A stretch of DNA of 63,022 nt from a virus. Taxonomy: Duplodnaviria; Caudoviricetes. The notes beneath the pieces were generated by a model that did not search any database, had not been told where the DNA came from, and saw only the letters and a program-made list of their open reading frames with translations. Each line of letters opens with the position of its first letter. Positions within the stretch are counted from its first letter, which is position 1. Location of the stretch: IMG/VR virus record IMGVR_UViG_3300031578_012080, positions 1 to 63,022 of that record. One strand, written 5' to 3'. A program made the position numbers and the translations under genes. Below, in pieces: positions 1,059 to 22,299 of this stretch.

Positions 1059-1769
1059 TTAAATAAATTTTTTTGTGGTTTTTAAACCTGTTTCTATCTG
1101 AATTAATGGTTCCCACTTATAATATTTAAAATTATCTGATTTATATTCTATATCCAATCTATTCTCATCTACTTCAATTATTATATTACTTTTTCTGTAT
1201 TTTTTTACTAGTTTTAACAAAGTGTCAATTCTTGTTTTTATACCACTTGCAATATCAAATTTTCCTATGATATCATTATTTAATACTATATCAATGGCAC
1301 TTATTAAATCTCCTTCATATAAAAAATCTCTGTATCCATCATTTACCTTTACAAACTTTTGATGAAATAAATCATATATTAAACCATATTTAACATTTGG
1401 ACCATATAGTTCTGAAACTCTAAAGACTGCATATTTTTTATTACTATCCTTTAATCTATTTTCAATTTCAATTATCTTACGTGCACGCTCATTTATAGGT
1501 TCAAATACTTCATAAACGCTAAATGGTAATTTGCAGTTAGTATTCAAATATAAATCACTACCACTAACTAGAAAAACTATTCTTTCAATTTTTTTATCTT
1601 CAATTAAATAAAAAAGTTTTTGGGTTTCCTTAAAATTTATTAAATCAATTATTGCTGTGTCCGTTTTTCCTCTTTGATGAAATGTAACATCATTTTCTCC
1701 ATCATATTCAAGACACATTTGTATATATTTCTTAAAAACAAAATTCGGACTGTACACAAGAATATTCAT
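1059..1769 (-). CDS. NAD-dependent epimerase/dehydratase-like protein (degenerate extended SDR)
   Basis: FRVSELYGP, RDFLYEGD, FDIASG and WEPLIQIETGL match extended SDRs; GxxGxxG and YxxxK are absent. Confidence 0.7.
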   Translation of the reverse strand: MNILVYSPNFVFKKYIQMCLEYDGENDVTFHQRGKTDTAIIDLINFKETQKLFYLIEDKKIERIVFLVSGSDLYLNTNCKLPFSVYEVFEPINERARKIIEIENRLKDSNKKYAVFRVSELYGPNVKYGLIYDLFHQKFVKVNDGYRDFLYEGDLISAIDIVLNNDIIGKFDIASGIKTRIDTLLKLVKKYRKSNIIIEVDENRLDIEYKSDNFKYYKWEPLIQIETGLKTTKKFI

Positions 1770-1772
1770 ACT

Positions 1773-2327
1773 TTAATATTTTTCGACACTATTGTCTCTA
1801 AAAAAAACACTTATATTTGCCATTTTAAACATTTCTTCTGATTCTTCACCAGCATGGTATTTTTTTTGGCATTTTACTTCTTTTATACCACACGAAATTA
1901 TTAACATGGCACAAGTTCTACAAGGTGTCATTTTACAATACATAGTTGAGTTTTCCAATACTACACCATTTTTCGCCGCTTGACATATAGCATTTTGTTC
2001 AGCGTGTATTGTCCTGGTACAATGGCTGGAAACAGGACTCAAATAAACATGATTATCATGATCATGTTTATAATCATCTGGAACATACGTATCAAATTCG
2101 TGAATCTGTTCTTGTGTTATTATCTTTTTACGTTGTTCAAATTGATGTCCATGAGTATCACAATGCGGAAATCCAGGGGGTGAACCAACATATCCAGTCG
2201 TAAGAATCTGGTTTTTATAAACAATAACACATCCACTTCTTCCACGATCACATGTACCTCTTTTTGAAATAGAATCAACTACATCAAAAAAGTATTCATC
2301 CCATTTTGGTCTTACATAATTATTCAT
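1773..2327 (-). CDS. dCMP deaminase (ComEB-like)
   Basis: RPKWDEYF, RGTCDR, TGYVGSP, HAEQNAI, PCRTC; ATG 2327 fits the AAGGA RBS better than 2336. Confidence 0.92.
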   Translation of the reverse strand: MNNYVRPKWDEYFFDVVDSISKRGTCDRGRSGCVIVYKNQILTTGYVGSPPGFPHCDTHGHQFEQRKKIITQEQIHEFDTYVPDDYKHDHDNHVYLSPVSSHCTRTIHAEQNAICQAAKNGVVLENSTMYCKMTPCRTCAMLIISCGIKEVKCQKKYHAGEESEEMFKMANISVFFRDNSVEKY

Positions 2328-3048
2328 CTTTAACATCCTTTAAATCATAAGATCTTACCATATTTTCTAACATATCAAAATGTCTCTCATATACATGAAA
2401 TGAAAATGGATGAAAATAAATTGCACCATCTTTAAGTTCAGGATATATCTTTTTCAAATCATCAAATAATCTCTCATATACTACACAGTGCCAATAGAAG
2501 TCATTAAAAAAACCATATATGGCATCACTTGATCTTTGTTTAACAACATAAATAAGCATATCCATTCTAATAAATATTTGTACACCGTCTGTGCACATAA
2601 AATCTGACATACCATCTCTATTATAATCTTCCCACATTGATGGTCTCTGGTAAATCATAACAGCTCTTCTTGAAAATTTATTTAGTTTTAATTCTTCAAG
2701 ACAATTTTTATATTGTGAACCATTTTCTTCAGAATAAATACACCATCCATAATTACTATTTATCATTCCATTTTTATCTGCAACATCTCGCCATATTTTG
2801 GCTTTCTTTCCTATTTCCTCCACAGATAATGATTGAGAATCATACCATTCTATTTCAGCTTTTGCATATTTTTCTGGTGTTTTTCGTGCACCAAAATCTA
2901 ATACTTTTTGTCTAGGGTCAAGCTTCATAATTGGGCAAAGTGTTTCAACCATTTTAACACCACTTTTATCAATTACAAAATGACCTCTTATACGATCATT
3001 ATTTAATTCTGAAAAGAACTCAAAGAGACGGTCCTCATTTTTTTGCAT
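2320..3048 (-). CDS. 42: dCMP hydroxymethylase (T4 gp42-like, thymidylate synthase fold)
   Basis: INSNYGWCI, SRRAVMIYQRPSM, DGMSDFMCT, RSSDAIYGFFND and HVYERHF track T4 gp42 as recalled (INSNYGWAI, SRRGIMIYTRPSM, DGMSDFMCT, RSNDVVFGFRND, HVYSRHF); Asp at the base-specificity site. Confidence 0.9.
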   Translation of the reverse strand: MQKNEDRLFEFFSELNNDRIRGHFVIDKSGVKMVETLCPIMKLDPRQKVLDFGARKTPEKYAKAEIEWYDSQSLSVEEIGKKAKIWRDVADKNGMINSNYGWCIYSEENGSQYKNCLEELKLNKFSRRAVMIYQRPSMWEDYNRDGMSDFMCTDGVQIFIRMDMLIYVVKQRSSDAIYGFFNDFYWHCVVYERLFDDLKKIYPELKDGAIYFHPFSFHVYERHFDMLENMVRSYDLKDVKDE

Positions 3049-3050
3049 TT

Positions 3051-3575
3051 TTATTCCTTCTTGTCTGTTGAGCCAAAACCACCATCACCACGTACTTTAT
3101 CCATCAACATGTGGTCATAAATTTCTTCTCTTGAAACTTCTTGTGGATTAGGAGTTAAAACAGGAACCATTGTCATCTGCACAAGTTTGTCACCTGGTAA
3201 GATCATTACATCTTCTTTACCAACATTATTCAAATTAATATGGATTTCACCATCATAAAATGTATCAATAACTTGTGCACCAACAAGTAGATGTTTTTTT
3301 GCAGCCACACCTGATTTATTAAGAAGCAAACCCATTGTGCCGTAATCAATTTCAAAAATTACACCAGATGGAATTAAAACTGATTGATTTGGCTGAAGTA
3401 ATATTTTTCCTGTATCGTCTATTTCAACACCTTTATTCACTTTGAGATTTTTTTCGATTAAATCTTTTACATACTTTTCAGTAGAATTTGGTGCAAAAAG
3501 ATCCATACCCGCATCTGTTGCATGTCCTCTTTTTGGAGATGTCACATCCCTAACTTTGGCAAATTTGATAATCAT
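3051..3575 (-). CDS. dut: trimeric dUTPase
   Basis: AGMDL, KSG, VIDTFYDGEI, KLVQ, RGDGGFGST (motifs 1-5). Confidence 0.92.
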   Translation of the reverse strand: MIIKFAKVRDVTSPKRGHATDAGMDLFAPNSTEKYVKDLIEKNLKVNKGVEIDDTGKILLQPNQSVLIPSGVIFEIDYGTMGLLLNKSGVAAKKHLLVGAQVIDTFYDGEIHINLNNVGKEDVMILPGDKLVQMTMVPVLTPNPQEVSREEIYDHMLMDKVRGDGGFGSTDKKE

Positions 3576-3605
3576 TATCTTCTCCTTAGTCTTATTATAG
3601 TATTT

Positions 3606-4241
3606 TTATTTTATGTTTTTTACTCTTTTTACAAATTCGTCAAAAAAATCGTGGTTTTGGCCAGTAGAAGCAAAAATTTCTATGTTAACTGCTTCTTCTG
3701 AGGATTCGTAAACGGGCCTTATAAAAAACTCATAAATTGTAATTAAGTCTGGAAATAACTCATTCTCAATATCTGACGCCCTAAACATTAATGCTATTTT
3801 GTTATCATAATAGTGGATCAATGATAGACAACTTACATCTTTCCCTGATATTTCTGACATATAATAATCTTTAAGACTATTTGCCATTCTTAAAACGCAC
3901 CTTGTAGATTTTCTTTCATCACCAATAGTATTAGCCATCTTTTTTATTAAATTTATTGCTTGATGATATGGAATATCATTTCTATCTTCAACAGCATAAG
4001 TATAAATTGTACCCTCAAGTTTATCCATCTTATCAAAATTCCTGAAAGCGGGTCTATCTTTATGATGTCCGTATGCACCTTTATCTATGTTCTGCTCTGC
4101 AAATGTTCGTGATTTAACATAAAGATATTCATCAACACATTTTAAATCTTTAAGTTCGTCATCATTCAATCCAAAATTATTAATTCTCAAAAAATAAGAA
4201 TCATTTTCATATAGTGGTTTTTTAAAAACTTGAATTTGCAT
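3606..4241 (-). CDS. divergent thymidylate-synthase-fold protein
   Basis: STRCV, VSCLSLIHY (catalytic Cys) and FRASDIENELFPD (RSxD-x7-D); no HxY motif. Confidence 0.65.
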   Translation of the reverse strand: MQIQVFKKPLYENDSYFLRINNFGLNDDELKDLKCVDEYLYVKSRTFAEQNIDKGAYGHHKDRPAFRNFDKMDKLEGTIYTYAVEDRNDIPYHQAINLIKKMANTIGDERKSTRCVLRMANSLKDYYMSEISGKDVSCLSLIHYYDNKIALMFRASDIENELFPDLITIYEFFIRPVYESSEEAVNIEIFASTGQNHDFFDEFVKRVKNIK

Positions 4242-4242
4242 T

Positions 4243-4908
4243 TTAAAGAATCCCTCTATTATTTGAAATTTCCTTAATATAGTCTAATAAAAAACCATAT
4301 TGTGTTTTAACATTTATATCTGTAATTTTATTTCTGCATGATATGTTTGCAACATCTATTTCTGCTTTTTTATCTATAATTGTTTCTGCAAAACCAATTG
4401 TCATATTCCTTATAAAATGATATTCATTTTCCTGAGTATATTTCAAATACTTTTGAGTGTAGTTATCAAATCTTTGCTGTTCTCTTATTGGTTCAAAAAG
4501 AAAAACCATATCATATATATTAAATAAATGGATATGTGTTTTTACTGTCAAAACACTTAAAAATTCATGATATTTTTTTATATTCTCTTCATCAAATGAA
4601 GATTTATCCAAATAAAATGTATAATAAAAATAACTATCAATGAGGCTTCTATCAAAAAATATTATTTTATTGTCATCATATATTTTAGCTGTTTCTTCTT
4701 GAAGTATTTTTTCACCTATCACTTCTATTTCAAAATCAAGATATTTAACTGGATCTTTTCTTATCTCATCAATATTTATATTTTTATCTCTTATAATTTC
4801 TGTTTTATGAACCACATTTTCTGGCCCTAAATCTTTTGTTAATTGTTCAATACAGGTTGTTTTACCTGAATGGGCCGATCCTGATATAACAATTATTAAA
4901 TTACTCAC
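4243..4908 (-). CDS. P-loop nucleotide kinase (AAA_28/NadR/dNMP kinase-like)
   Basis: IIVISGSAHSGKTT Walker A, FFDRSLID, YDMVFLF; GTG at 4908 with GGAG RBS preferred over the ORF-track start at 5010. Confidence 0.8.
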   Translation of the reverse strand: MSNLIIVISGSAHSGKTTCIEQLTKDLGPENVVHKTEIIRDKNINIDEIRKDPVKYLDFEIEVIGEKILQEETAKIYDDNKIIFFDRSLIDSYFYYTFYLDKSSFDEENIKKYHEFLSVLTVKTHIHLFNIYDMVFLFEPIREQQRFDNYTQKYLKYTQENEYHFIRNMTIGFAETIIDKKAEIDVANISCRNKITDINVKTQYGFLLDYIKEISNNRGIL

Positions 4909-6601
4909 TATATGCTCCAATAAATAAATAAACATTTTTATCAGCACGTTCAAATTGAAAAAAGAAATCTTCCATTGCTTGATCAACAGTAAAAACAATG
5001 GGTTTTCCATGTATATTAAAAGATGTATTTATCAATGCTTTTGTTTTATCTTCCATCCTTTTTAATATTTTATAAATAGTTGAATCTCTATCAACAACAA
5101 TTTGTGGTCTACCAGAATATTTATTAATTAATGGATACTTATGCATTATACCACCATACTCTTCACAATAATCTATTTTATAATCATATGTCAAAATCAT
5201 ATATTGATCAGAACCAATAACTCTAGTGAATTGCTCAGCTTTAAAGAAATGATCAATATATTCATATAGAATACATGGTGCCATAGGCATAACTGTATTT
5301 CTTTTATTCAAATGATTAATATACTCAACATTCTTTTTTGTTGGTAATGCAAGAGTTGATGTATGACATAATGCTCTTGGTCCAAATTCCATATTACCAA
5401 ATACAATATTGACAATTTTATCATCCATCAATTTTTCTACAACACCGTCTACCATTTCATCTTGATTACCAACACATTTTATATAATCTGGATAATCTAC
5501 AGTAATATCTGTAATTTCATCTCTTTTTCCCCAAAGTAGACTATCAAATGGAAAGTTATTTTTTTGAAATTCATATAATCCTATTGCTGCTCCTTGATCA
5601 CCGCACACAGGACAAATACAAATATCACCTTCAATTTCATTCATTATTTTATTATTGAGTTTCACATTATAATAAATTCCACCAGTTAGAATAACATTTT
5701 TAATATTGAATTTTTCAATAATAAGAACATGAACACCTTCAATAATTTTTTGTATATAATATCCAACAACTATTCTCTTTATATTTTCATCCATTCTTAC
5801 ATCAAGACATTCAACCATGTTTTCAAAATCTTGATACCATACCTCTTTTGTTTGTTGCAATTCATCAATATTAATATAATCTGATGAATGATTTCCAGAA
5901 TTACTTTCATACATCAATAAATCAAACATGGTTTTTATAACACTTTTGGCAATCATATTTAATTTATCGATATCTTCATCAGAGCATACACTATCAATAT
6001 CAGATTCATACCCAAGGAACTTGTATTCATCCTGGTTCTCTTTCATTCCACAAAACGATGTAGCATATTGATACATAAGTCCTAATGATTTGAAGTATCC
6101 CGATGAATTGAAATCTTTCATTAAGGTTTTCTTCTTACCACCATTAAATGATAATTCATAAACTGAAAGAACTTCTTGATTATTACCAAATCCATCAGCA
6201 ACTATTACAGTTGCATCTTCTCTTCCATTATGTGAAACATAATATGAAACAGCCGACCATGCGTGAGCATCATGATGTGTAAAATCTTCATTCAATATTT
6301 CAAGCTTAAAATTATATTTTTCTTTTATTTCATTAATGAATCCATAATTATAATATTTATTTATTGTCTCATTATATTTTTGATAGAACAAAAAATTATC
6401 AAACCAATGAGAAACATATATTGTATTATCTTTGTCTGGATTGGGTGGACTCAATTCAAATATTTTCCTTATTGAATTTTCAGCAAATAATGAACATGAT
6501 TTTATGCCCGTTAATCTCTCTTCTTCATATGCTGCAATAATTTCATTGTCTTTTATACCTATTGCAGATGCGTTGTGTCCCAGTGTTATAAGTAATTCCA
6601 T
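4901..6601 (-). CDS. carbamoyltransferase (NodU/CmcH/TobZ family), probable 5hmC O-carbamoyltransferase
   Basis: GHNASA, EEERLT, HHDAHA, DGFG, SLGLMY, TGG..NVKLN, GDQG, EFGPRAL, NTSFNIHG; adjacent to the hmC synthesis genes. Confidence 0.92.
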   Translation of the reverse strand: MELLITLGHNASAIGIKDNEIIAAYEEERLTGIKSCSLFAENSIRKIFELSPPNPDKDNTIYVSHWFDNFLFYQKYNETINKYYNYGFINEIKEKYNFKLEILNEDFTHHDAHAWSAVSYYVSHNGREDATVIVADGFGNNQEVLSVYELSFNGGKKKTLMKDFNSSGYFKSLGLMYQYATSFCGMKENQDEYKFLGYESDIDSVCSDEDIDKLNMIAKSVIKTMFDLLMYESNSGNHSSDYINIDELQQTKEVWYQDFENMVECLDVRMDENIKRIVVGYYIQKIIEGVHVLIIEKFNIKNVILTGGIYYNVKLNNKIMNEIEGDICICPVCGDQGAAIGLYEFQKNNFPFDSLLWGKRDEITDITVDYPDYIKCVGNQDEMVDGVVEKLMDDKIVNIVFGNMEFGPRALCHTSTLALPTKKNVEYINHLNKRNTVMPMAPCILYEYIDHFFKAEQFTRVIGSDQYMILTYDYKIDYCEEYGGIMHKYPLINKYSGRPQIVVDRDSTIYKILKRMEDKTKALINTSFNIHGKPIVFTVDQAMEDFFFQFERADKNVYLFIGAYSE

Positions 6602-7342
6602 TTATCCCTCTAACAATTCTTTTATTTTTAAATTATAATGTTGTTTGCCATCTTTAAACTGCTGTCTATATATAAAATACGATGGATGATATGTATAAAC
6701 TGATTCAATTCTATTTTCATTCATAAAATTATAAACATCTCGTCCTAGTGCTAATATCTTTTTAGGTTTCAATATTTTTATTTCTTCTTCTAAAATATGC
6801 AAATATTTCTCATACATCTTCTCGTAAGAATAATTATTATTGTATGATTTATCATTCATTAAATTTCTTGATAAACATAATTTTGATAGATTAGTAAAAT
6901 ATATTCGTTTTAAATCTGATTTAAATCCTTCTCTTAACATTTTTGAAGTTAATGCAAAATAAAATGATGGTTTAAGCGGTTTTGACAACACATCTGTTTT
7001 ATTTGCATTATAAAATCCTGGTGCCATTCCAACTACCATTATACCATCAGTACCTATATACCCATCACCAACACAATTCAATTTATCTTCATCTTCCACC
7101 AAAATATCTTTATTTGTATCGAATAACAGTTGTTTATTTTTTTTATGTTCTTCATCAAAGACATGCATTAAAGGGGAAAATATAAAAAATAGGTTGGAAA
7201 CATCATCATCAACAGTAACAACAAATTCTGGATCAAGAAATTGTTCACGGTACTCTTTAAATACTGTGTATGTTAGTTCATTATATGGAAGAGAACTATT
7301 ATCTAAAATAAATTGTCTGAACCTCGCTAAAAATTCTTTCAT
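6602..7342 (-). CDS. uracil-DNA glycosylase-like protein (family 4/5 fold)
   Basis: IMVVGMAPG, YFTNLSK, EEEIKILKPKKILALG, YHPSY. Confidence 0.8.
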   Translation of the reverse strand: MKEFLARFRQFILDNSSLPYNELTYTVFKEYREQFLDPEFVVTVDDDVSNLFFIFSPLMHVFDEEHKKNKQLLFDTNKDILVEDEDKLNCVGDGYIGTDGIMVVGMAPGFYNANKTDVLSKPLKPSFYFALTSKMLREGFKSDLKRIYFTNLSKLCLSRNLMNDKSYNNNYSYEKMYEKYLHILEEEIKILKPKKILALGRDVYNFMNENRIESVYTYHPSYFIYRQQFKDGKQHYNLKIKELLEG

Positions 7343-7842
7343 TTTGCCAAAACCTTAAATTCATGCCATATTGATTTCAAATTTTCAAGTCTTTTTTTCA
7401 TAGATTTTACTGAATCATCATGCTTTTCATATTTTCTTGGAAATTCAATTTTTTTACCCAAATGAATATAAATTTTATTTTTATAATAGATAATCTTTGT
7501 TTTTAATCTTGTATATTCTACATGTGTTTGTTCCCATTGTCTTACTTTATTGAGACAATGTTTCTTATTCTTTTTATAATATTTTGCTCTTACTTTCTTG
7601 TCTCTCTTTTTTATTTCATGTCTTTGTTTATATTTTTTTACTCTACCTCCACAACATACTTTACATTCACCACTTGAAGGTTTTCCATCTCTTTTCAGAT
7701 AGAATCCATCTTCAATGTCCTTATATTCTTCACATTTACTGCATCTTTTTCTATTTTTTTGAATCTTAGAAAATATCTTGCTGATATCTTTTTTTGTAGT
7801 TTTCATAAAAAGATATGTCCAAAAATTTTTGGTAATCTTCAC
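7339..7842 (-). CDS. basic Zn-finger protein resembling HNH/EndoVII N-terminal domains, no nuclease domain
   Basis: KRCSKC...FY...ECKVC followed by a Lys/Arg-rich helix; start uncertain (ATG 7806 is an alternative). Confidence 0.55.
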   Translation of the reverse strand: MKITKNFWTYLFMKTTKKDISKIFSKIQKNRKRCSKCEEYKDIEDGFYLKRDGKPSSGECKVCCGGRVKKYKQRHEIKKRDKKVRAKYYKKNKKHCLNKVRQWEQTHVEYTRLKTKIIYYKNKIYIHLGKKIEFPRKYEKHDDSVKSMKKRLENLKSIWHEFKVLAK

Positions 7843-8992
7843 ATGCTCTTAATTCATCAATTATTTTCTGATAATCTAATGCTTTAATTTTTTTAATTAA
7901 TTCTTCTTCTGTAACCAGCAAATCATATTTTTCAATAATCTCTTTATACTTTGGTAAATGACCATAGACATGTTGCCATTTAGAATCTTTATGAATTAAA
8001 GGTATACATGCTCTATCTACAGCTTCATGAAATCTAATTAGAGAGAACTCATTCTCACAATATGCTGGAATTACCATTGTATAACGAGCAGCTGCAATAT
8101 ACTTATCGTTATAATCAAACCCATTTACATACGTATTTATTTTTCTTTGTTTATCTTTAAAAAAATGTTTGTAAGTTATACCTTCTTTATCAAAATCTTT
8201 TTCCAGTTCCAAGAGTTTGCCAATCATATTAAATCTATATGGAACAGATGTCATAACACTTGTCATACCAAAAACAAAATCATATTCTTTTTTATATTCA
8301 AAAGTCTGATCTTTGTTTCGTTTGTAAATAAATCCATATTCTACATAAGGAAAATATTCAGCATTTACCCTTGGACAATCATAATAAAAAAATCTTTTAT
8401 TTATAGGATTAACTGCATGAAAACTTAATTCAAGTGGGTCATCCACAAATTGAACAATGGGTACATTATAATTTCTATTCAAATAATATTCAACCATTAT
8501 TCTTCTATAATAGTTCTTTATTGATGAGAAGCTGAATCCATACTTATCATCTTTTACAATATTTTTATATAATCCTTCTAAATTATCTTCATTACCAAAG
8601 CTCCAAGCATCAATTAATGGGGTAAATGCAATTATAACTTTATTGAAATGATATTGTGAAAATAAATCATCAAGTATTTCTAATGATTTTTTCCATGAAT
8701 CACTCTTCATATAATCTGAACCATCAATAAGACTTGTAAATTTTGTTTTATTTTTAAGCGTTTTTTCAAGACGCTCTGGGCGGACAAATGTGAAGAAATG
8801 ATAATTGTTATTTCCAAGTTCCACAAAATCTAGATTTTTATCGATACGGTGTTTTGCGAAAAATCCACAATGATTACATCCAAACATGACTAATGTATTA
8901 TTTTTATATCCTTCTATTTTTTGACCTTTTCTTCTTCTCATAGTTTGTACATTTGTTGTATCAACTTTCACATCACTTTTTCTTTTTATCAT
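7766..8992 (-). CDS. GT-B glycosyltransferase, T4 beta-glucosyltransferase-like
   Basis: QFVDDP, YDFVFG and RYTMVIP....FSLIRFHEAV...CIPLI match a GT-B C-terminal donor-binding segment; hmC gene context. Confidence 0.7.
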   Translation of the reverse strand: MIKRKSDVKVDTTNVQTMRRRKGQKIEGYKNNTLVMFGCNHCGFFAKHRIDKNLDFVELGNNNYHFFTFVRPERLEKTLKNKTKFTSLIDGSDYMKSDSWKKSLEILDDLFSQYHFNKVIIAFTPLIDAWSFGNEDNLEGLYKNIVKDDKYGFSFSSIKNYYRRIMVEYYLNRNYNVPIVQFVDDPLELSFHAVNPINKRFFYYDCPRVNAEYFPYVEYGFIYKRNKDQTFEYKKEYDFVFGMTSVMTSVPYRFNMIGKLLELEKDFDKEGITYKHFFKDKQRKINTYVNGFDYNDKYIAAARYTMVIPAYCENEFSLIRFHEAVDRACIPLIHKDSKWQHVYGHLPKYKEIIEKYDLLVTEEELIKKIKALDYQKIIDELRACEDYQKFLDISFYENYKKRYQQDIF

Positions 8993-8998
8993 GCCGGT

Positions 8999-11900
8999 TT
9001 AAACCTTTAGTTTTAAAATATTATCTATAAAATATGTTTTCATTCCTGCAAAATCTTCATCTCTTCTTATTTTTACTTTTACAAGATCACCATTATAAGT
9101 ATCACTATTTATTAATCCAATATCTTCAGCAACATTTGACCATGCTTTCAAATCAATTGAATAACATTCATCGTATACTGTTGCATAAACTAATTTTCCA
9201 CTAATTTCAATATTATTAATATATCCAAAGCAAAATTTTGGAGGACCTATTGTCATTTCTTCACATTCAATTAATGTTTTTAAATATCTATCTTCAGATT
9301 TTACTTTTTCAAACTGAAATACTCTTTTTTCAATTAGCTCTTCATTTTTCTTATCAATTATGCTATCTATTTCTTCAGTATCTTTGGTTATGTGTATAAA
9401 ACTATTTAATGTACATGGTTTATAACTATAAATTGAATATCTTGAAACAGCAAAATATACAATTCTTCCAAGTTTAATTACATTCTTATAGTTTTCAAAA
9501 ACTGAATTCCATACTTTCAATGTTATAAATGAATTATCATCTTCAATTCTTATCTTATAAAATCTTCTTCCAGCCTTTGTTTCACCATCTTCAATTCTTT
9601 TTATAACACCAATGCTTGCACCATATCCGTTATCCTTTATGTTTTCAATAGTTCCATATTTTTTAACATCAATCTGCAATTGATTCATCTTATTGATAAA
9701 TTCAAAACCTAAAACAGTATTAGTAAATTTATCATTTTCTTCATCTGTAAGTTTGAATAGTTCAAGATCCATATCTTCAATTGTTAATTGTTTAATATCA
9801 ATTGTAAGATTGTTTGTTATTTTCTCAATAGTATTACAAATGGTATCAGAAACTGGATTTTTATCTCTTTCCTTTGCCAATCTACTGTGTTCTCCTACAA
9901 AAAACCCTTTTCTGTTTTGACATTTTTTATAATAAGTAAAAAGAATTTTTATTCTATCACCAAAATCATCAAATCCGCCTACAAGAATTAATGGCATCAT
10001 GACTCGTTTGGTAACTTTACTTTTACCTCTTTGTTTTATTGTTCTTTCAAGGAAATCATCAAAAGATGTGAACGGATGTTTATTTGAAATTTCAGCAGCT
10101 GGTTCAGCACCAACACCTTTCAAATTTATAAATCCAATAACAATACTATTCCCATCTATTGTGAAATTTAATTTACTTTTATTTACATTAATTCCTTCAA
10201 TATTAATTTCTAATTTTTTAGCTTCCCTTATGTAGCTCTCATATTTTGATTCATCTTTTGGAATATTCTGTAATACAGCACAAATATATTCTTTTGGATA
10301 ATATGTTCTGAGCCATGCACAACGATATGAAATTATTGTATAACTTACTGCGTGGGACTTGTTGAAGCCGTAGCCGGCCCATTTTAAAAATCCATCAAAA
10401 AGTTTTTCCAGTTCTTTTACAGGAAGATGTTTCTTACCATTTGCAATAAATTTCTTTTTATATTCCTGAAGTTTTTTCCATTGTTCATCTTTAACTGTTC
10501 CTTTTACTTTAGTAAGTAGTTTTCTTAAAATATCTGTTTCAACCAATGTAAAATCAGCTATTTTATTAGCAATCTGCATTATTTGTTCTTGATAAACTAC
10601 AATACCATAAGTATATCCAAGAACTTCTTCCAATAATGGGTGAATCTTATATTTTGATTTTCCTAATTTTCTTCTACAAAATTCATCAGTCATTCCACTT
10701 TGTAATGGTCCAGGTCTACCTAAAGCTGTAACAGCTGCCAAACAATCAAAACTATCACATTTTGAATCTTTAAGCAGTTTTCTCATCATTGGACTTTCAA
10801 ATTGGAATATTAAATTACCATTTCCAAGCATAATCTGTTCATATATTTTAGGATCATTTAAATTACTATCAATATCTTCATGTGCATCAATTTCTTTTCC
10901 ATGTCTTTCTTTAACAATTTTAATAGTATCCTTAATAAATGTTAGATTTAATAATCCAAGTATATCATATTTGACAAATCCAAAACTTGAAAGTTCCGCA
11001 CCTCTTTTTCCTTCAATCCATGCTGACAATATATTATTTTGTCTTGTAACTAATGGTAAATTTCCTGTCAAATCATGTTTGCTAATAATAAATCCTGCAG
11101 CATGTGCAGAAATATTTCTTATTCTTCCACGTATATTCCAAAATGTGTTATAGGGATTCAATGTTTTTTCTTCTGTTTTTCTTTGAACAAGTTGTTCATA
11201 TTGTTTTTCTCTAAGTGGTTCAAATAATGGACCAAAAGTTTTTTCTGCCTCCTCTTTGTCCATTAGATCAACATCTGATGTCAATTGTTTTGTTATCATT
11301 CTTGATACGACAAGCGGAACATCAAAAACTCTACAAACATCTGCGATTGAAGCTCTTGTCTGATAAGTTCCATAAGTACCAATTGCACATGTTTTGTTTC
11401 TACCATATTTTTGAATAATATAATCTTTTATTGCATCTCTTCCATGAGGTTCAAAATCTATATCAATATCAGGCATATCTTGACGTGCTTCATTTAGAAA
11501 TCTTTCAAAGAATAAATTGAATTGTAATGGATCAACATCAGTTATTCTGAGAACATAACATAATAATGCTCCTGCTGCCGATCCCCTACCACAGCCGACC
11601 CAGATATCATTGTCCCAAGACCATTTTACCATATCCCAAACAATTAAAAAATATCCTGAATATTCTTTTCTTTTTATTACATCAAGTTCCATTTCTAATC
11701 TAGCAATATACTTTTCGTTATTTTTCCCTCTTTCCTTCAAACCTTCAAATGCTAGATGTCTTAAATACTCATATGAACTATCAAAACCTTTAATGTCATC
11801 ATAATCTGCAATTTTCAAACTTGTATCAATTTCAACTTTACAACTATCTGCAAATTTTACTGCATTCTTTTTTGCCTGTTCATATACATCACGTGGAACT

Positions 11901-13273
11901 ATTTCAGTATATAAATCTTCATATGTTTGGTCAAGATCTTCAGCTGATTTATACCATAGTTCTTTAGAATGAAATGTAAATATTTTATCTGGGTCTTCTT
12001 GTAAATCTTTTATCTTATTATTATTTTGTATTAATAGCATAACATCTTGATAATATGAATCATCTTTCTTAACATAATGACAATCACTTGTCACAACTAA
12101 ATCTATGTCTAAATCCTTTGATATTTTTACAAGTTCTGCATTTACTTTTTGTTGTTCTTCAATATCAAGTAACATTAATTCAAGAAAGAAATCTTTTCCA
12201 AATATACTTTTATAATATTCAGATGCCTTATATGCACGATCCAAATCACCATTTAAAATACACTGTGAAATTGGTCCTGCATAACATGCTGTTCCACATA
12301 ATAATCCTTCAGAATATTTTTCAATCATTTCATGTGTTGTTCTTGGTCTTCTATAATATCCATTTATCCATGCATCTGACGTTAATTTTATCAGATTACT
12401 TAAACCTGTATTATTTTTTGCTAATAATGTTAAATGATAATTTTTTCTAAATTTACTTTGTAGATCTTCTAGTGAATCAAATCCTTCTGGCAATTTTAAA
12501 TCTTTTGCTGCTTTTACATTATATTCACGAAGATCTCTATAATCATTTAAATAAATCTCACATCCATATATTGCATTTAATCCTAGTTCTTTACAAATAT
12601 TATATTGTCTTGGAATTTGACCTAACATTCCATGATTGGTAATTGCTAAATGTTTCCATCCTCTTTCTTTTGCAGCATGTGCATATTCTTCAACAGTACC
12701 ATATCCATCTAAAAGTGAATATTCATCATGAATATGTAAATGTACAAACGGTTGGCATCCCTTTAATTTTTTTATTTTATCATCATATTCCTTTATAAAC
12801 TCTTTTATAAGGGGAATAGAAGGTTTTATTTGATCATACCATTCATCATAAGATTCACCTTTATCAATTTGCACAACTTGAGGATGCCAAATCGCAATTG
12901 CGTGGCCATTTTTCTTTTTTTCTAAAATACCATAATCCGCAAGATCCAATAATTCTCTTGCTAATTCGCCAATCGCAATTATTAGTTCTGGTTTCTGTTC
13001 ACCAATTATTCTTGTAATATAATCAACAAGCTCATCTTCATCTTTTTCATTTAAATCGAGTTCATCTTGTTTTCTAGGTAGGGCAGTGATGAAATAATTA
13101 TTAGAAGTTAGTTTTAGTGATGAAAATAATTTTCGTAAATGTTTGGAAAATTTTTCTTTTGCAATTTCTTTCTTTATATCAAATGGAAAATCACAATTAT
13201 CAGTTTCTCTATCTATTAAAATATCTAATCCGAAAATTAGAATCTTAGATTCTTTGTTTCCAAATTCTATCAT
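8999..13273 (-). CDS. dnaE: DNA polymerase III alpha subunit with N-terminal UDG-like domain
   Basis: PHP motifs HLHIH..YSLLDG, TNHG, SDCHY; GRGSAAG; MPDIDIDF; KYDILGL; YGFNKSHA. N-terminal ~165 aa has KPELIIAIG and WHP. Confidence 0.95.
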   Translation of the reverse strand: MIEFGNKESKILIFGLDILIDRETDNCDFPFDIKKEIAKEKFSKHLRKLFSSLKLTSNNYFITALPRKQDELDLNEKDEDELVDYITRIIGEQKPELIIAIGELARELLDLADYGILEKKKNGHAIAIWHPQVVQIDKGESYDEWYDQIKPSIPLIKEFIKEYDDKIKKLKGCQPFVHLHIHDEYSLLDGYGTVEEYAHAAKERGWKHLAITNHGMLGQIPRQYNICKELGLNAIYGCEIYLNDYRDLREYNVKAAKDLKLPEGFDSLEDLQSKFRKNYHLTLLAKNNTGLSNLIKLTSDAWINGYYRRPRTTHEMIEKYSEGLLCGTACYAGPISQCILNGDLDRAYKASEYYKSIFGKDFFLELMLLDIEEQQKVNAELVKISKDLDIDLVVTSDCHYVKKDDSYYQDVMLLIQNNNKIKDLQEDPDKIFTFHSKELWYKSAEDLDQTYEDLYTEIVPRDVYEQAKKNAVKFADSCKVEIDTSLKIADYDDIKGFDSSYEYLRHLAFEGLKERGKNNEKYIARLEMELDVIKRKEYSGYFLIVWDMVKWSWDNDIWVGCGRGSAAGALLCYVLRITDVDPLQFNLFFERFLNEARQDMPDIDIDFEPHGRDAIKDYIIQKYGRNKTCAIGTYGTYQTRASIADVCRVFDVPLVVSRMITKQLTSDVDLMDKEEAEKTFGPLFEPLREKQYEQLVQRKTEEKTLNPYNTFWNIRGRIRNISAHAAGFIISKHDLTGNLPLVTRQNNILSAWIEGKRGAELSSFGFVKYDILGLLNLTFIKDTIKIVKERHGKEIDAHEDIDSNLNDPKIYEQIMLGNGNLIFQFESPMMRKLLKDSKCDSFDCLAAVTALGRPGPLQSGMTDEFCRRKLGKSKYKIHPLLEEVLGYTYGIVVYQEQIMQIANKIADFTLVETDILRKLLTKVKGTVKDEQWKKLQEYKKKFIANGKKHLPVKELEKLFDGFLKWAGYGFNKSHAVSYTIISYRCAWLRTYYPKEYICAVLQNIPKDESKYESYIREAKKLEINIEGINVNKSKLNFTIDGNSIVIGFINLKGVGAEPAAEISNKHPFTSFDDFLERTIKQRGKSKVTKRVMMPLILVGGFDDFGDRIKILFTYYKKCQNRKGFFVGEHSRLAKERDKNPVSDTICNTIEKITNNLTIDIKQLTIEDMDLELFKLTDEENDKFTNTVLGFEFINKMNQLQIDVKKYGTIENIKDNGYGASIGVIKRIEDGETKAGRRFYKIRIEDDNSFITLKVWNSVFENYKNVIKLGRIVYFAVSRYSIYSYKPCTLNSFIHITKDTEEIDSIIDKKNEELIEKRVFQFEKVKSEDRYLKTLIECEEMTIGPPKFCFGYINNIEISGKLVYATVYDECYSIDLKAWSNVAEDIGLINSDTYNGDLVKVKIRRDEDFAGMKTYFIDNILKLKV

Positions 13274-13493: not shown

Positions 13494-14396
13494 TTAGAAG
13501 CTTTTAACCTCTTTCAAGTTCTTAATTCTTATTTCATATTCTTCATTTATTTCTTTTTGAATACCGGACCATTGTCGTTCAAGTTCTTTATAATACTGCA
13601 TTTTCTGATGTTGATTTAAACTTAATGCCATATCCGTAGCAATTTTTATTTTATTTAAAACCCGTTCAATTACAACTCTAATATAAATAGTTTCAACTTG
13701 TTTTGAAATCAGTGGACTCATTGATTCAATACCCAAAAAACTTGCTGTTTTTGGATCCAAAAACTTCAAGAATTTTTCAGTCTGATCTAATTCTTTACTC
13801 TTTAATAATGCTTGAGACTGTATTTTAAGTTTTGATAGAATTTGTGTTTGGAGATTATTAACTACATTTTCTTGTTTCATAATCAGATCATCAAGACCCT
13901 CAATTCTATCTTCATCAATTCTATCTTGCTTTATCTGCTCTAATTCTTGTAGCCGTGTAATCTGTTGTTTCATTGAAAGTTCTATTAATTCTAAATCATT
14001 TATTCTTTCATCAACTAAAACTTTAAATATATCTGTCATTTGTTGTTGTTGTTCAACAGGTAAATTATTCATACCATTTTTTCTATTATATTCTGCTACT
14101 GCTGCACCTTTAAAGTTGAAATGATTATTAAAATGTCTAGTCAACATTGCTAATGATATTTTTTCACCAGTTTTTTCGCGAACCTTATCCCCAAATCGTG
14201 TTAATATTTGATCGTATGAAAATCCATTCAGATAAGCTTCATTTATTTTAATTGCAAAATACTGTAGATTACAACAAGGGCACTTTGGATCGATAGTCAT
14301 ATATTTAAAAATAATTTTCTCATCATCTTCATCCTCAAGCGTTGTTGGTACCATCATATTTATTTGTTCTTTTTTTTCTTTTCTTCTATTCATCAT
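13494..14396 (-). CDS. hypothetical protein with CxCC/HxxxH putative Zn-HTH domain and coiled coil
   Basis: KCPCC, GFSYDQI...ISLAMLTRHFNNH, long helical C-terminus. Confidence 0.7.
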   Translation of the reverse strand: MMNRRKEKKEQINMMVPTTLEDEDDEKIIFKYMTIDPKCPCCNLQYFAIKINEAYLNGFSYDQILTRFGDKVREKTGEKISLAMLTRHFNNHFNFKGAAVAEYNRKNGMNNLPVEQQQQMTDIFKVLVDERINDLELIELSMKQQITRLQELEQIKQDRIDEDRIEGLDDLIMKQENVVNNLQTQILSKLKIQSQALLKSKELDQTEKFLKFLDPKTASFLGIESMSPLISKQVETIYIRVVIERVLNKIKIATDMALSLNQHQKMQYYKELERQWSGIQKEINEEYEIRIKNLKEVKSF

Positions 14397-15267
14397 CTAT
14401 TTCTCCAATCTTACACCAATTTCTATTCTTATATTTATCTTGCGTCCACCCACGTACATATTTAGCATGATTTAATCCATTTATAACCGAACTTATATTA
14501 TCTGCTTTCGCAAGTATATATGATTCTTTTGTTTTACATTCTTCTGGACTTCCCCATTCTCGTTTACCATGTGAACTTAAAATCATATGATATAATAACA
14601 TCATCTTTTTAGGACCTATATCATTTGGAATTATTTTAGAAGCAAATAATGCAGATATTGAAAGATGCCCTAGTAAATGTTCCCAATTTGTTTTTATAAT
14701 CATTTTTTTATCACCTAAATCTTTAATATCATAACACTTTAATTTTCCAATATCATGTAATAATCCACCTGTTATAATCAAATCCCTATCCATTTCTTTA
14801 TAATAATCGCATAAATAAATAGCAACCTCTGTCGTTTCAACTGTGTGCTGTAATAATCCATGAGGATAATTATGATGACGATTTTGAGCTGCTGGATATA
14901 TTAAAAATAAATCTAAAATTTCATCAACAAAAATAGAATCTATAATTTTTTTATATTCCTTGTCCTTTATTTGATTACATAAATTTTGAAAACGAATTCT
15001 ATAATCTTCATACATTGGACTGTCTTCTTCATCTATACTTTTTCCTACATAAATTATATCTAAAAATTGTTCGTCTTTTCTTTTTCTTAATCTTCCTTGT
15101 ATTTTTATTTTATCATTTACTTGATAAGAGTTAGCAAATAAATCTATATTATCTTTTAAAATCCCTTCAATCATTCCATTATGATTTTCCAACATGATAG
15201 AAAGATGATTCTTTTTAACCTCAATTTTTCTAATATGATACTCGTCAATTATATCTTTATTTGCCAT
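14386..15267 (-). CDS. yhaM: YhaM/Cbf1-like 3'-5' exonuclease (OB + HD domains)
   Basis: PAA..RHHNYPHGLLQHT, LLHDIGK, LLGHL, HMILSSHG..EWGSP; N-terminal OB fold. Confidence 0.85.
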   Translation of the reverse strand: MANKDIIDEYHIRKIEVKKNHLSIMLENHNGMIEGILKDNIDLFANSYQVNDKIKIQGRLRKRKDEQFLDIIYVGKSIDEEDSPMYEDYRIRFQNLCNQIKDKEYKKIIDSIFVDEILDLFLIYPAAQNRHHNYPHGLLQHTVETTEVAIYLCDYYKEMDRDLIITGGLLHDIGKLKCYDIKDLGDKKMIIKTNWEHLLGHLSISALFASKIIPNDIGPKKMMLLYHMILSSHGKREWGSPEECKTKESYILAKADNISSVINGLNHAKYVRGWTQDKYKNRNWCKIGEIDDE

Positions 15268-21378: not shown

Positions 21379-22299
21379 TTAGTTCTCCATTATACATTCT
21401 TCAGGTTTTATATCAAATCTCATTCGATAATATTTTGGTTCTAAAAAATACATTTGATATCTGTCTAAAGCTTTTATCTCTACAACTTTACCAATATAAT
21501 CGCTTTTATTTTCAAATAAATCTCTTCTAATAGAAATGTCACTTATTGCACCGATTTTTTGAATATCTATTAAAATACCATTTGAATATTGACCTATAGA
21601 AATAGAACAACACTCTCCTTCTCTCTTAGGAGTATCAAATGCATCCATTAAAACAACAAGATAAGACTTTAAAAATTTAAGTATTTTCCATGCATTTGAC
21701 TTATAAAAATGATAAAATGATGTTGGTTTTCTTAAATAAAAAATAGGTGACTGCCCAATTACACCATTTAATGGTTTGTTTTTATAAAAAGAAGGGAAAT
21801 AAATTTTTGATTTTTTTATTTGTTCCATATCTATAATATTATCTTCAATTATTTTTCTTCTTTGTTCAAAATAAGTACTACTTAAGTCTTTTCCATCAAA
21901 GTAAATGACATCATAAATTATAAAAACAGGCATACCGTATTTATCAAATAACTTATTCATATTATCTAGCCCATGTTTATAAAATCTCAAAATATCTTTT
22001 AAAAAACATGAACCATCTAAAATTAAAATACCATCCAATAATGTGTTTCTTGGTAAATATAATCTTTTTAATCCATTTACAATATAATCAAATTTTTTAT
22101 GAAATAAACGAATATGTGGATCTATTTTTTGAATTTTACCATTAAATGTGATATCCTCTTTTATGAGGCACTGTAATCTTAAGCCTTGTTTTATAGATTC
22201 GGCAATATAATTTGACTCTTGAATATATTTTTGTAAAATATCTTCTGGTTTATCGGTTACAATTTTCTTTGGCAACATCAAGTTGACAAAATTAGCCAT
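21379..22299 (-). CDS. ATP-dependent DNA ligase-like protein with degenerate catalytic motifs
   Basis: YIAESIKQGLR (motif I), LLDGIL, FIIYDVIYFDG, FEQRR, C-terminal OB (IGKVVEIK, EPKYYRMRFDIKPEEC). Confidence 0.75.
   Translation of the reverse strand: MANFVNLMLPKKIVTDKPEDILQKYIQESNYIAESIKQGLRLQCLIKEDITFNGKIQKIDPHIRLFHKKFDYIVNGLKRLYLPRNTLLDGILILDGSCFLKDILRFYKHGLDNMNKLFDKYGMPVFIIYDVIYFDGKDLSSTYFEQRRKIIEDNIIDMEQIKKSKIYFPSFYKNKPLNGVIGQSPIFYLRKPTSFYHFYKSNAWKILKFLKSYLVVLMDAFDTPKREGECCSISIGQYSNGILIDIQKIGAISDISIRRDLFENKSDYIGKVVEIKALDRYQMYFLEPKYYRMRFDIKPEECIMEN

Follow-up and report, generated by a model that had tools for sequence, protein, structure and literature searches.

What does a phage make of its cytosines when the genes for a T4-type dCMP hydroxymethylase, a carbamoyltransferase, a second thymidylate synthase (TS)-fold protein and a glycosyltransferase-like protein lie in a single run? 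The question is raised by positions 1,059 to 13,273 of the IMG/VR virus record IMGVR_UViG_3300031578_012080, a linear viral record whose 63,022 bases were analysed in full and are called the window here. An initial annotation of these eleven genes (Table 1) had proposed a new cytosine hypermodification operon led by a DNA polymerase with a uracil-DNA glycosylase (UDG) domain. The gene identities, folds, conserved catalytic residues, co-occurrences and gene fusions observed in and around the cluster suggest a DNA-precursor and DNA-modification module of a large, low-GC tailed phage, in which cytosine would be replaced via 5-hydroxymethyl-dC and the hydroxymethyl group would then be decorated; in our judgement this reading is evenly balanced between right and wrong. 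Four publications are cited here, namely Yang et al., 2021 (eLife 10:e70021), Lee et al., 2026 (NAR gkag646), Missoury et al., 2026 (NAR gkag1018) and Zhao et al., 2016.

The carbamoylation core and its distribution

The product of 4901-6601 harbors both domains of an O-carbamoyltransferase above their cut-offs, PF16861 Carbam_trans_C (E 3.5e-30) and PF02543 Carbam_trans_N (E 3.5e-17), in agreement with the initial annotation. It also matches phrog_1601 (2.4e-72), and it shares 35-39% identity with genes in phages of Bacteroides, Acinetobacter and Xanthomonas and 31-49% with those of the 78 IMG/VR loci described below. It is predicted to be a 5-hydroxymethylcytosine (5hmC) carbamoyltransferase, and its genomic context is that reported by Yang et al. 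(2021), who described a phage contig on which a two-domain carbamoyltransferase lies beside a TS homologue with Asp177 and a dCMP deaminase. Their recombinant metagenome enzyme, for which TobZ was the reference, converted 5hmdC to 5cmdC without needing a partner; it was most active on single-stranded DNA (ssDNA) and several-fold less so on double-stranded DNA, and it accepted 5hmdCTP while being inactive on 5hmdUTP. DNA ligase domains were found to be associated with modified contigs in that study, which left open whether carbamoylation precedes replication and in which, as far as its accessible text goes, the base was never measured in a phage (Yang et al., 2021). In literature searches, outside of which lay subscription journals and supplements, this was the only relevant paper on the carbamoyl base or its enzyme; no paper on the kinase, TS2 or the glycosyltransferase in a carbamoyl pathway was found, and the names of the Bacteroides phages led to one review.

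The substrate-forming enzyme of the core is equally recognizable. The gp42-like protein matches T4 dCMP hydroxymethylase (PDB 1b49) over residues 23-230 at E 1.6e-52 (phmmer), and it keeps the FMCT motif with its Cys and the GFFND motif with the Asp of T4 D179. Asp residues occupy the positions equivalent to Asn177 and Asp169 of E. coli TS, and a further Asp three residues before the Cys provides an acidic residue at the Leu143 position; the catalytic columns, including the Asp at the Asn177 position, are invariant among 14 aligned gp42-like sequences. According to the residue rule for TS folds, N177D denotes a cytosine substrate, an acidic residue at position 143 accompanies hydroxymethyl rather than methyl products, and D169N is the mark of the 5-hydroxylases, or 5-hydroxy-dCMP (5hodCMP) synthases (Lee et al., 2026). 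The gp42-like protein thus carries the residues of a dCMP hydroxymethylase. The nucleotide-pool genes were also identified correctly at the outset, as judged from Pfam, NCBIfam or PHROG profiles: the dCMP deaminase shows HAE and PCxxC motifs in its translation, and the dUTPase-family protein matches TIGR00576 (1.5e-24, below the cut-off) as well as dCTP_deam (1.4e-7), with homologues of 31-52% identity in loci L003/L004, L006, L007, L014 and L019 and in Bacteroides phage BF486P2.

A scan of IMG/VR with the carbamoyltransferase yielded 78 loci, many of them on contigs of the TS2 set discussed below, which form 61 clusters at 90% carbamoyltransferase identity. They were searched with hidden Markov models built from our own alignments, and contig ends cut some of the loci, so that absences are to be read as lower bounds in the following counts: at least one TS-fold gene lies within 10 kb in 70 of the 78 raw loci (57 of the 61 dereplicated clusters), two or more TS-fold genes are present in 40 (31), the kinase in 43 (33), TS2 in 22 (18), the UDG-like domain in 13 (11), kinase and UDG-like domain within a single open reading frame (ORF) in 9 (8), and the glycosyltransferase in none (none). 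Since two TS folds occur in about half of the clusters, they are not peculiar to the window. The core is also carried by six cultured Bacteroides fragilis phages, which have the carbamoyltransferase, the kinase and two Pfam-type TS genes but not TS2. The statement of the initial annotation that the cluster fits neither the T4 pathway nor the carbamoyl pathway was therefore overstated: as judged from its genes, the core is the pathway from 5hmC to 5-carbamoyloxymethylcytosine (5cmC) of Yang et al. (2021), which is widespread and not new in kind.

The combination of a carbamoyltransferase, a kinase and two Pfam-type TS genes was observed in L044-L067, L077, L083, L092 and L001, the last being Bacteroides phage BF486P2. 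In a quick maximum-likelihood tree of 75 TS-fold proteins, used for this point only, the TS copies of the two-TS loci fall into one well-supported clade of kinase-adjacent genes and another of distal ones. Loci of the BF486P2 type keep two different cytosine-type TS paralogues, and the kinase-adjacent copy sits where TS2 does in the window. Elsewhere, the carbamoyltransferase is split into two ORFs, in L005:715-2394 (the same as L032) and in L095:7670-9447, as a result of frameshift, assembly error or decay.

TS2, a thymidylate-synthase-fold protein outside Pfam

The sequence of TS2 has no match in Pfam, PHROG or NCBIfam, and neither tblastn against GenBank phages nor a single-protein pattern scan of IMG/VR found a relative. 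With TS2 alone or with a TS2 profile, nothing significant was obtained among PDB sequences, TS and MilA appearing only at E 0.7-0.9. An exhaustive phmmer search gathered 95 representatives, nearly all of ~200 aa, and none of the 63 aligned members matches PF00303 even at E 0.1, let alone at its gathering cut-off. Because the PDB sequence searches were insignificant, the assignment to the TS superfamily is based on the fold and on profile-profile comparison. The AF2 model, built with the 63-member alignment, has a pLDDT of 94.2, and Foldseek relates it to 127 PDB chains at E<=1e-3, all of which, among the matches listed, belong to the TS family. By VIA, the model is closest to T4 dCMP hydroxymethylase (Z 12.7, root-mean-square deviation [rmsd] 3.8 over 175 residues), MilA (Z 12.6) and the dCMP hydroxylase of HY126 (Z 12.5), with canonical TS at 11.1 or less, which places it in the TS superfamily, and hhalign aligns it with 14 gp42-like proteins at a probability of 92% (E 6e-7).

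The alignment of TS2 with the gp42-like proteins pairs the SRR phosphate motif, Cys138, Arg154, Asp157 (E. coli D169) and Asp165 (E. coli N177), and Asp135, three residues before the Cys, falls at the Leu143 position. Asp157 is invariant in a 13-sequence alignment and is paired with the Asp of the RSSD motif of gp42-like proteins. Both proteins of the window have Asp at the Asn177 position, and the two cytosine-type TS folds seen in the initial annotation are thus borne out. With N177D, an acidic residue at position 143 and D169 kept, TS2 therefore bears the signature of a hydroxymethylase and not of a hydroxylase. TS2 does not qualify as a 5hodCMP synthase, having Asp157 rather than Asn at the D169 position; unlike the synthases described by Lee et al. 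(2026), neither TS2 nor the gp42-like protein shows D169N.

Fifteen positions are nearly invariant across the 63 members of the TS2 family. One distinctive residue is Ala155, at the position of TS Ser167, which is found in at least 90% of the members and differs from all gp42-like proteins. MilA and BcmA, which are CMP hydroxymethylases, also have Ala at this position, and it is one of the two changes that give them their ribose preference (Zhao et al., 2016); unlike in MilA, the second determinant, Lys in place of Arg126', is inconsistent in the TS2 family, with Thr in the window and mostly Arg elsewhere. In addition, an invariant Gln-Asn replaces the His-x-Tyr sugar-binding motif of TS, an equivalence drawn by eye and not from a computed alignment. 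Sequence and model together make TS2 an apparently active cytosine-nucleotide C5 enzyme with a hydroxymethylase-like signature and a remodelled sugar pocket, and a ribonucleotide such as CMP is one lead as to its substrate.

The genomic linkage of TS2 is strict. Scanning IMG/VR with the 13-sequence alignment identified 16 loci, including three pairs of near-duplicates, in which genes were counted by tblastn and blastp with the window proteins. The carbamoyltransferase gene is present in all 16, directly upstream of TS2 or separated from it only by the kinase or UDG-like gene or by one small ORF, and the two genes also occur together on one further contig, L019. A gp42-like gene accompanies them in 15 of 16 loci (L015 being without one), and DnaE, counted within 10 kb of the module, in 10; the kinase is found in 6 and the UDG-like gene in 5, whereas the glycosyltransferase, zinc-finger and epimerase-like genes are found in 0/16. 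The second TS of Bacteroides phage BF486P2 has no similarity to TS2.

In a related phage, the UDG-like gene is immediately preceded upstream by a gene (L003:5895-6626, the same gene being present in L004) with a match at E 1.3e-30 to the Pfam family Tad6, an inhibitor of Type I Thoeris; the DNA-modification module thus has an anti-defence gene embedded beside it.

The kinase and the UDG folds

The AAA_28 and dNK matches of the P-loop kinase bear out its initial annotation. Its nearest PHROG families are called thymidylate kinase (E 4e-8), and its Walker A and DRS motifs are invariant in the alignment. Among GenBank phages, it matches only the six Bacteroides fragilis phages, in 6/6 of which it lies beside the carbamoyltransferase. 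Such specificity for carbamoyltransferase-bearing phages fits a deoxynucleoside monophosphate (dNMP) kinase tuned to 5hm- or 5cm-dCMP, and RB69 and DLP3 do require cognate dNMP kinases for their modified dCMPs (Lee et al., 2026). Of the 11 dereplicated clusters with a UDG-like domain, 8 have it fused to the kinase; for the separate kinase and UDG-like proteins of the window, a complex prediction run with these two proteins only and without alignments gave no answer (score 0.00).

The UDG-like protein, correctly named at the outset on its PF03167 match, also matches TIGR00758 UDG_fam4 (E 7e-7, 29 bits against a cut-off of 125), and the profile of its family finds the structures of family-4 UDGs, 4zbx at 2.9e-11 and also 1vk2 and 1ui0, which places it in the superfamily. 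Family-4 enzymes are characterized by a GE[AG]PG motif and four Fe-S cysteines. The window protein has GMAPG and HPSY motifs and two Cys in all, while its kinase-fused relatives keep GEAPG and HPAA; no tblastn match to the window protein was obtained in GenBank phages.

The third UDG fold is the one for which the polymerase was initially called UDG-DnaE. When residues 1-176 of the DnaE-type protein are scanned alone, they pass the PF03167 cut-off (E 1.2e-5, 25.9 bits against 24.3), and in a language-model search their nearest neighbors are viral UDG clusters (0.82, a weak lead). On the other hand, the domain gave no match in the whole-protein Pfam scan or in the NCBIfam scan, and hhalign against the UDG-like family returned a probability of 7%, for which reason it is not used as support. 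The N-terminus is accepted as a degenerate UDG-superfamily domain. The arrangement resembles the UDG-fused A-family polymerases of T-modified phages, in which an N-terminal UDG domain sits on a replicative polymerase; template scanning in advance of the fork has been published for such UDG-PolA fusions (Missoury et al., 2026). Unlike these, the window polymerase is a C-family enzyme, and neither 'DnaE' nor 'C-family' is mentioned in the accessible text of that paper.

The recurrence of the UDG fold on a kinase, on a glycosyltransferase (in L019) and on DnaE points to a shared role at DNA. By analogy, UDG folds may be modules that recruit enzymes to the DNA of the replication fork, whether or not they still excise some uracil.

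The glycosyltransferase-like protein

The fold of the glycosyltransferase-like protein (GT), as modelled, is GT-B. Foldseek relates the AF2 model to 122 PDB chains at E<=1e-3, all of them GT-B enzymes among the matches listed, and the T4 α- and β-glucosyltransferases (AGT and BGT) are among the top 11. By VIA, the best match is the HY126 glycosyltransferase (Z 14.7, 294 residues, rmsd 4.3), followed by T4 BGT (Z 14.0). An Atlas model of the GT reaches TM 0.55-0.67 to GT4-type clusters, and E315-x7-E323 is invariant in a 4-sequence alignment of the family; we take such an E-x7-E pair to be a hallmark of GT4. Among language-model neighbors of the GT, PF09198 is found in one cluster only, on 40% of its members. 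The initial annotation as a GT is thus supported by the GT-B fold, with phage DNA glycosyltransferases among the best structural matches, and finds none in sequence families. That DNA would be the acceptor is suggested by the genomic context.

GT relatives are rare. In a set of 5.8 billion proteins the family comprises four clusters, i.e., three besides that of the window, to which a profile search added none; no relative was found either in a single-protein pattern scan of IMG/VR or on metagenome contigs scanned with the GT alignment. One relative lies within a carbamoyl module, on L019, an independent GTDB contig of 15.2 kb and 23% GC labelled as a Patescibacteria metagenome-assembled genome. 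This contig carries a run of the gp42-like gene (43% identity), the dUTPase, the carbamoyltransferase (49%), the GT (43%), the UDG-like gene (42%), the kinase (41%), TS2 (37%) and the dCMP deaminase (32%), with the GT and the UDG-like domain in one 553-aa ORF, P0005, that matches PF03167. The initial annotation had expected the GT and TS2 genes to recur with the cluster elsewhere: TS2 does so with the carbamoyltransferase throughout its loci, and GT, TS2 and six other cluster genes come together in L019, but the GT is missing from all of the 78 carbamoyltransferase loci. A more distant relative (26% identity) is encoded on L020, at a distance of 2.5 kb from a gp42-like gene. A single gene separates it from a UDP-galactopyranose mutase gene, a C5 DNA methylase lies beside it, and there is no carbamoyltransferase. 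The GT family thus accompanies cytosine C5 enzymes and, in the lineage to which the window and L019 belong, has become part of the carbamoyl module.

Despite its label, L019 looks phage-like in its 23% GC and its whole modification module, and the in-frame TAA found in its GT gene (see below) could reflect a sequencing error, a nonsense mutation or a gene in two pieces. On L020, positions 6719-12200 comprise a phage cluster of a gp42-like TS, the UDP-galactopyranose mutase (E 4.7e-70), a 391-aa protein, the GT relative and the C5 cytosine DNA methylase; the cluster looks like a separate glycosyl-cytosine pathway, possibly furanose-based.

Proposed pathway and alternative readings

We infer the steps of the pathway in this phage, their order and the final base as follows. 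The dUTPase and the dCMP deaminase would manage the dU and dC pools, the T4-type hydroxymethylase would make 5hm-dCMP, the kinase would take the modified dNMP to the diphosphate, and the phage's own DnaE would incorporate the modified nucleotide. The carbamoyltransferase would convert 5hmC to 5cmC, at the fork on ssDNA or already on the nucleotide; given its homologue's preference for ssDNA, it would work best at the fork. The GT-B enzyme would glycosylate part of the 5hmC, and the UDG-like domains might recruit kinase, polymerase and GT to the fork, by analogy with the UDG-PolA fusions. As the GT and the carbamoyltransferase share the target hydroxyl, a mosaic of 5cmC and glycosyl-5hmC would be the simplest outcome. 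Such a mosaic is known from T4, whose two glucosyltransferases decorate the same hydroxymethyl group in two ways.

The T4 pathway of 5hmC glucosylation is similar to the window in other respects as well, with a close gp42 homologue, a kinase, a dCMP deaminase and a GT-B enzyme (Z 14.0 to BGT, 11.7 to AGT). Unlike in T4, the kinase is not gp1-like by sequence, the GT is without PF09198 or any other Pfam match, the polymerase is of the DnaE type, and a carbamoyltransferase and TS2 are added. The formation of glycosylated 5-hydroxycytosine in RB69, DLP3 and HY126 similarly combines a dCMP TS-fold enzyme with a kinase and a GT (Lee et al., 2026; PDB 9iqu, 9iqc, 9iqz); TS2 resembles the HY126 hydroxylase with Z 12.0-12.5, and the window GT resembles the HY126 glycosyltransferase as given above. 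Compared with the carbamoyl pathway as published, the window lacks the PRA-PH partner and has several additional genes: the main text of Yang et al. (2021) contains no occurrence of 'kinase', 'glycosyltransferase' or 'glycosylase', its accessible part describes no second, Pfam-invisible TS-fold gene, and it places glycosyl transferases group 1 next to carbamoyltransferases on unmodified contigs only.

A number of observations weigh against decoration of 5hmC in the manner proposed. On the side of the GT, no match was found in Pfam (E 0.01), PHROG or NCBIfam, and the protein does not belong to PF09198 T4-Gluco-transf; its AF2 model is mediocre (pLDDT 66, pTM 0.61), generic GT-B enzymes (Z 13.9 and below) come within ~1 Z of the phage DNA glycosyltransferases, and the gene is found at 0/78 other carbamoyltransferase loci. 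In L019, an in-frame TAA (6777-6779; gene 6555-8450) splits off the first ~75 codons, so that the GT may be decaying there. The GT and the carbamoyltransferase would, moreover, compete for the same hydroxyl, and the likeness of the latter to the enzyme assayed by Yang et al. (2021) consists of shared motifs seen by eye only. The nearest solved relatives of the kinase are small-molecule kinases, the ribosylnicotinamide kinase NadR at E 0.009 and a dNK at 0.05 (PDB), a likeness that fits a dNMP kinase but leaves the fusion to a DNA-glycosylase fold unexplained. As for the UDG folds, the N-terminal domain of DnaE has no recognizable GxxPG motif, which makes its activity doubtful, the UDG-like protein carries Met in place of the Glu of family-4 enzymes (GMAPG vs. 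GEAPG of the fused forms), and a plain role of these domains in uracil repair is possible. Finally, no dCTPase (MazG or PRA-PH) was found in the window, which comes from an uncultured phage and is only ~37% complete according to CheckV.

Alternatively, the phage may follow the known pathway to 5cmC alone, perhaps with residual 5hmC, the GT acting on something other than DNA or being inactive, the UDG domains serving in repair, the kinase being a dNMP kinase and TS2 a redundant or specialised second hydroxymethylase. The carbamoyltransferase, TS and kinase module is common without the GT, the GT of L019 has its in-frame stop, uracil repair by a UDG that is fused to a phage polymerase or works alongside it is well established (Missoury et al., 2026), and the fused UDG forms retain GEAPG and HPAA. 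The kinase resembles nucleoside and nucleotide kinases, and the modified dCMPs of RB69 and DLP3 need cognate kinases of this sort (Lee et al., 2026). This explanation is nevertheless doubtful in view of a GT that stays inside the module on two contigs, despite identities of only 31-49% between their proteins, and that is fused to the UDG-like domain on one of them, of the phage DNA glycosyltransferases among its best structural matches, and of the 16/16 linkage and 15 nearly invariant positions (63 members) of TS2, which are hard to square with redundancy. A switch of target base is very improbable and was rejected: 5hmU-based hypermodification of thymidine with a DNA kinase would profit from the dUMP fed by the dCMP deaminase and the dUTPase, and P-loop kinases and UDG-fold proteins do occur in T-modifying phages (Missoury et al., 2026), but the Asp at the Asn177 position in both TS-fold proteins and in 14/14 aligned gp42-like relatives, the match of the gp42-like protein to T4 dCMP hydroxymethylase and the inactivity of the assayed carbamoyltransferase on 5hmdUTP (Yang et al., 2021) all indicate cytosine.

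More elaborate chemistry was the suggestion of the initial annotation, which offered a carbamoylated glycosyl-hmC or a substitution product of carbamoyl-activated hmC beside a mosaic. In such a compound or substituted base, the carbamoyl group would be placed on a sugar first attached to 5hmC, or phosphorylation of 5hmC in DNA by the kinase-UDG unit or the carbamate as leaving group would allow a TS2-aided substitution. Carbamoyltransferases of the NodU/TobZ family normally act on sugars, so a sugar-borne carbamate would be chemically natural for the enzyme, though without support here. The fusion of the kinase to a DNA base-flipping fold in 8/11 clusters has a parallel in the 5-hmdU DNA kinases that Lee and co-workers reportedly described in 2018 in thymidine hypermodification, and TS2, an apparently active cytosine C5 enzyme, always accompanies the carbamoyltransferase, whose base Yang et al. 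(2021), in the accessible text, never measured in a phage. On the other side, the assayed homologue carbamoylates 5hmC directly and without a partner (Yang et al., 2021), the GT is absent from 78/78 and the UDG-like domain from 65/78 carbamoyltransferase loci, and no tailoring gene of the amine, pyridoxal-phosphate or radical-SAM type is present among the scanned ORFs of the window. We consider a compound or substituted base improbable, and nothing computed favors it over the mosaic or plain 5cmC. A related, rather unlikely view is that the carbamoyl pathway is a multi-enzyme fork system of the kinase-UDG unit, TS2 and the carbamoyltransferase, joined here by a UDG-linked GT, which yields a cytosine derivative not described so far, such as a carbamoylated glycosyl-hmC or a substitution product at the activated 5-methylene; TS2 might then use a ribonucleotide or an already modified cytidylate.

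In sum, the genes of the cluster are confirmed, and the interpretation given in the initial annotation is supported in part. The core is the published one, whereas the linkage of TS2 to the carbamoyltransferase, the kinase (often UDG-fused) and the rare GT inside the module seem to be undescribed, and a known gene set with three conserved, unstudied partners and a rare GT means that the DNA base may exceed those described. These observations matter since 5cmC is known only from one recombinant metagenome enzyme. The carbamoyltransferase usually travels with a dedicated kinase that is often UDG-fused, and often with a TS-fold enzyme that standard annotation misses, and a DNA-glycosyltransferase-like gene has been inserted into the module in at least two lineages. 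Concrete gene sets are thereby available for reconstitution, with TS2 as a candidate for a new activity in the TS superfamily, the module provides a test case for the reuse of UDG folds in DNA-modifying phages, and it might supply new enzymes for marking 5hmC. As six cultured Bacteroides fragilis phages carry the core, its chemistry can be checked in a culturable system.

Organization of the cluster and other genes of the window

The eleven genes are abutting or overlapping ORFs on one strand, as the initial annotation had it. Neighbors are separated by gaps, or share overlaps, of at most 30 nt, except for an overlap of 110 nt between the longest kinase ORF and the carbamoyltransferase gene, which vanishes if the kinase starts at Met26. 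The shared strand is not special to the cluster, since all gene-sized ORFs of the window, whose GC content is ~28%, lie on the same strand. The limits of an operon are not marked by promoter-like sites (112 found vs. 118 expected from shuffles) or by terminator-like sites, of which two were found on the - strand, both inside genes and with nothing above shuffles. A megablast search of GenBank phages with the entire cluster as query found nothing.

Table 1. Genes and domains of the cluster, in descending order of coordinates.
Feature	Length	Position	Strand	Basis or remark
DnaE-type (C-family) DNA polymerase alpha subunit	1424 aa	8999..13273	-	PHP, DNA_pol3_alpha, finger, HHH_6, OB
N-terminal UDG-superfamily domain of DnaE, degenerate	aa 1-176	12746-13273	-	PF03167 when scanned alone
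GT-B fold glycosyltransferase-like protein	408 aa	7766..8992	-	Fold only; candidate DNA (5hmC) glycosyltransferase
Small basic Cys-rich zinc-ribbon protein	167 aa (155 aa from Met13)	7339..7842	-	CxxC...CxxCC pattern
UDG-superfamily (family-4-like) protein	246 aa	6602..7342	-	PF03167 at 2e-10
NodU/TobZ-type O-carbamoyltransferase	566 aa	4901..6601	-	Carbam_trans_N + Carbam_trans_C
P-loop kinase, dNK/NadR-RNK type		4243..5010, likely start 4935	-	AAA_28 5.6e-12, dNK 9e-7
TS2, TS-fold protein outside Pfam	211 aa	3606..4241	-	AF2 fold, Foldseek, VIA, hhalign
Trimeric dUTPase-family protein	174 aa	3051..3575	-	PF00692 at 3.2e-16
T4 gp42-type dCMP hydroxymethylase	242 aa	2320..3048	-	phmmer to PDB 1b49
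dCMP deaminase with insertion	187 aa	1773..2336	-	PF00383 at 1.4e-21; phrog_174 at 1.1e-38
Short SDR-derived ('degenerate epimerase') protein	236 aa	1059..1769	-	Sub-threshold Pfam matches

Two genes of the cluster do not figure in the proposed pathway. The zinc-ribbon protein has no match in Pfam and weak PHROG matches to endonuclease VII and endonuclease families (E 1.3e-4 and 2e-4). The 'degenerate epimerase' of the initial annotation retains a weak likeness to extended short-chain dehydrogenases/reductases (SDRs), with sub-threshold Pfam matches to Epimerase (0.02), RmlD_sub_bind (0.023) and GDP_Man_Dehyd (0.029) and an NCBIfam match to the C-terminus of TIGR01181 (1.5e-3). Its family comprises 21 homologous clusters of proteins of ~250 aa, and the 13 aligned members have 26 invariant columns in common but all lack both the dinucleotide motif GxxGxxG and YxxxK; as judged from this alignment, it is a conserved SDR-derived protein and not an epimerase. 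Neither gene was found in L019 or in the 16 TS2 loci; the search for them did not extend to the 78 carbamoyltransferase loci.

Outside the cluster, the window encodes an SbcCD-like nuclease, a UvsX-like recombinase, a gp32-like single-stranded DNA-binding protein, two helicases, a primase, a DnaB-like helicase with a loader-like ATPase, RuvC, a 5'-3' exonuclease and a PD-(D/E)XK nuclease, together with NusG-like, sigma-like and baseplate proteins. This replication set and the baseplate proteins identify it as a fragment of a large tailed phage. A 1001-aa ORF at 43201-46206 has no Pfam or PHROG match, and a 2784-aa ORF at 48000-56354 lies upstream of the baseplate genes. The 308-aa protein of 21379-22305 has near-threshold matches to ATP-dependent DNA ligase and mRNA capping nucleotidyltransferase domains. 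An OB-fold and HD-domain phosphohydrolase encoded at 14386-15267, two genes upstream of DnaE, might act on nucleotides. Just downstream of the cluster, 743-1036 encodes a chlamydial Hc1-type histone H1-like protein (PF07432, E 2.3e-7), and an HU-like domain protein is encoded at 30342-31010; the phage thus has DNA-compacting proteins of its own beside the modification genes.

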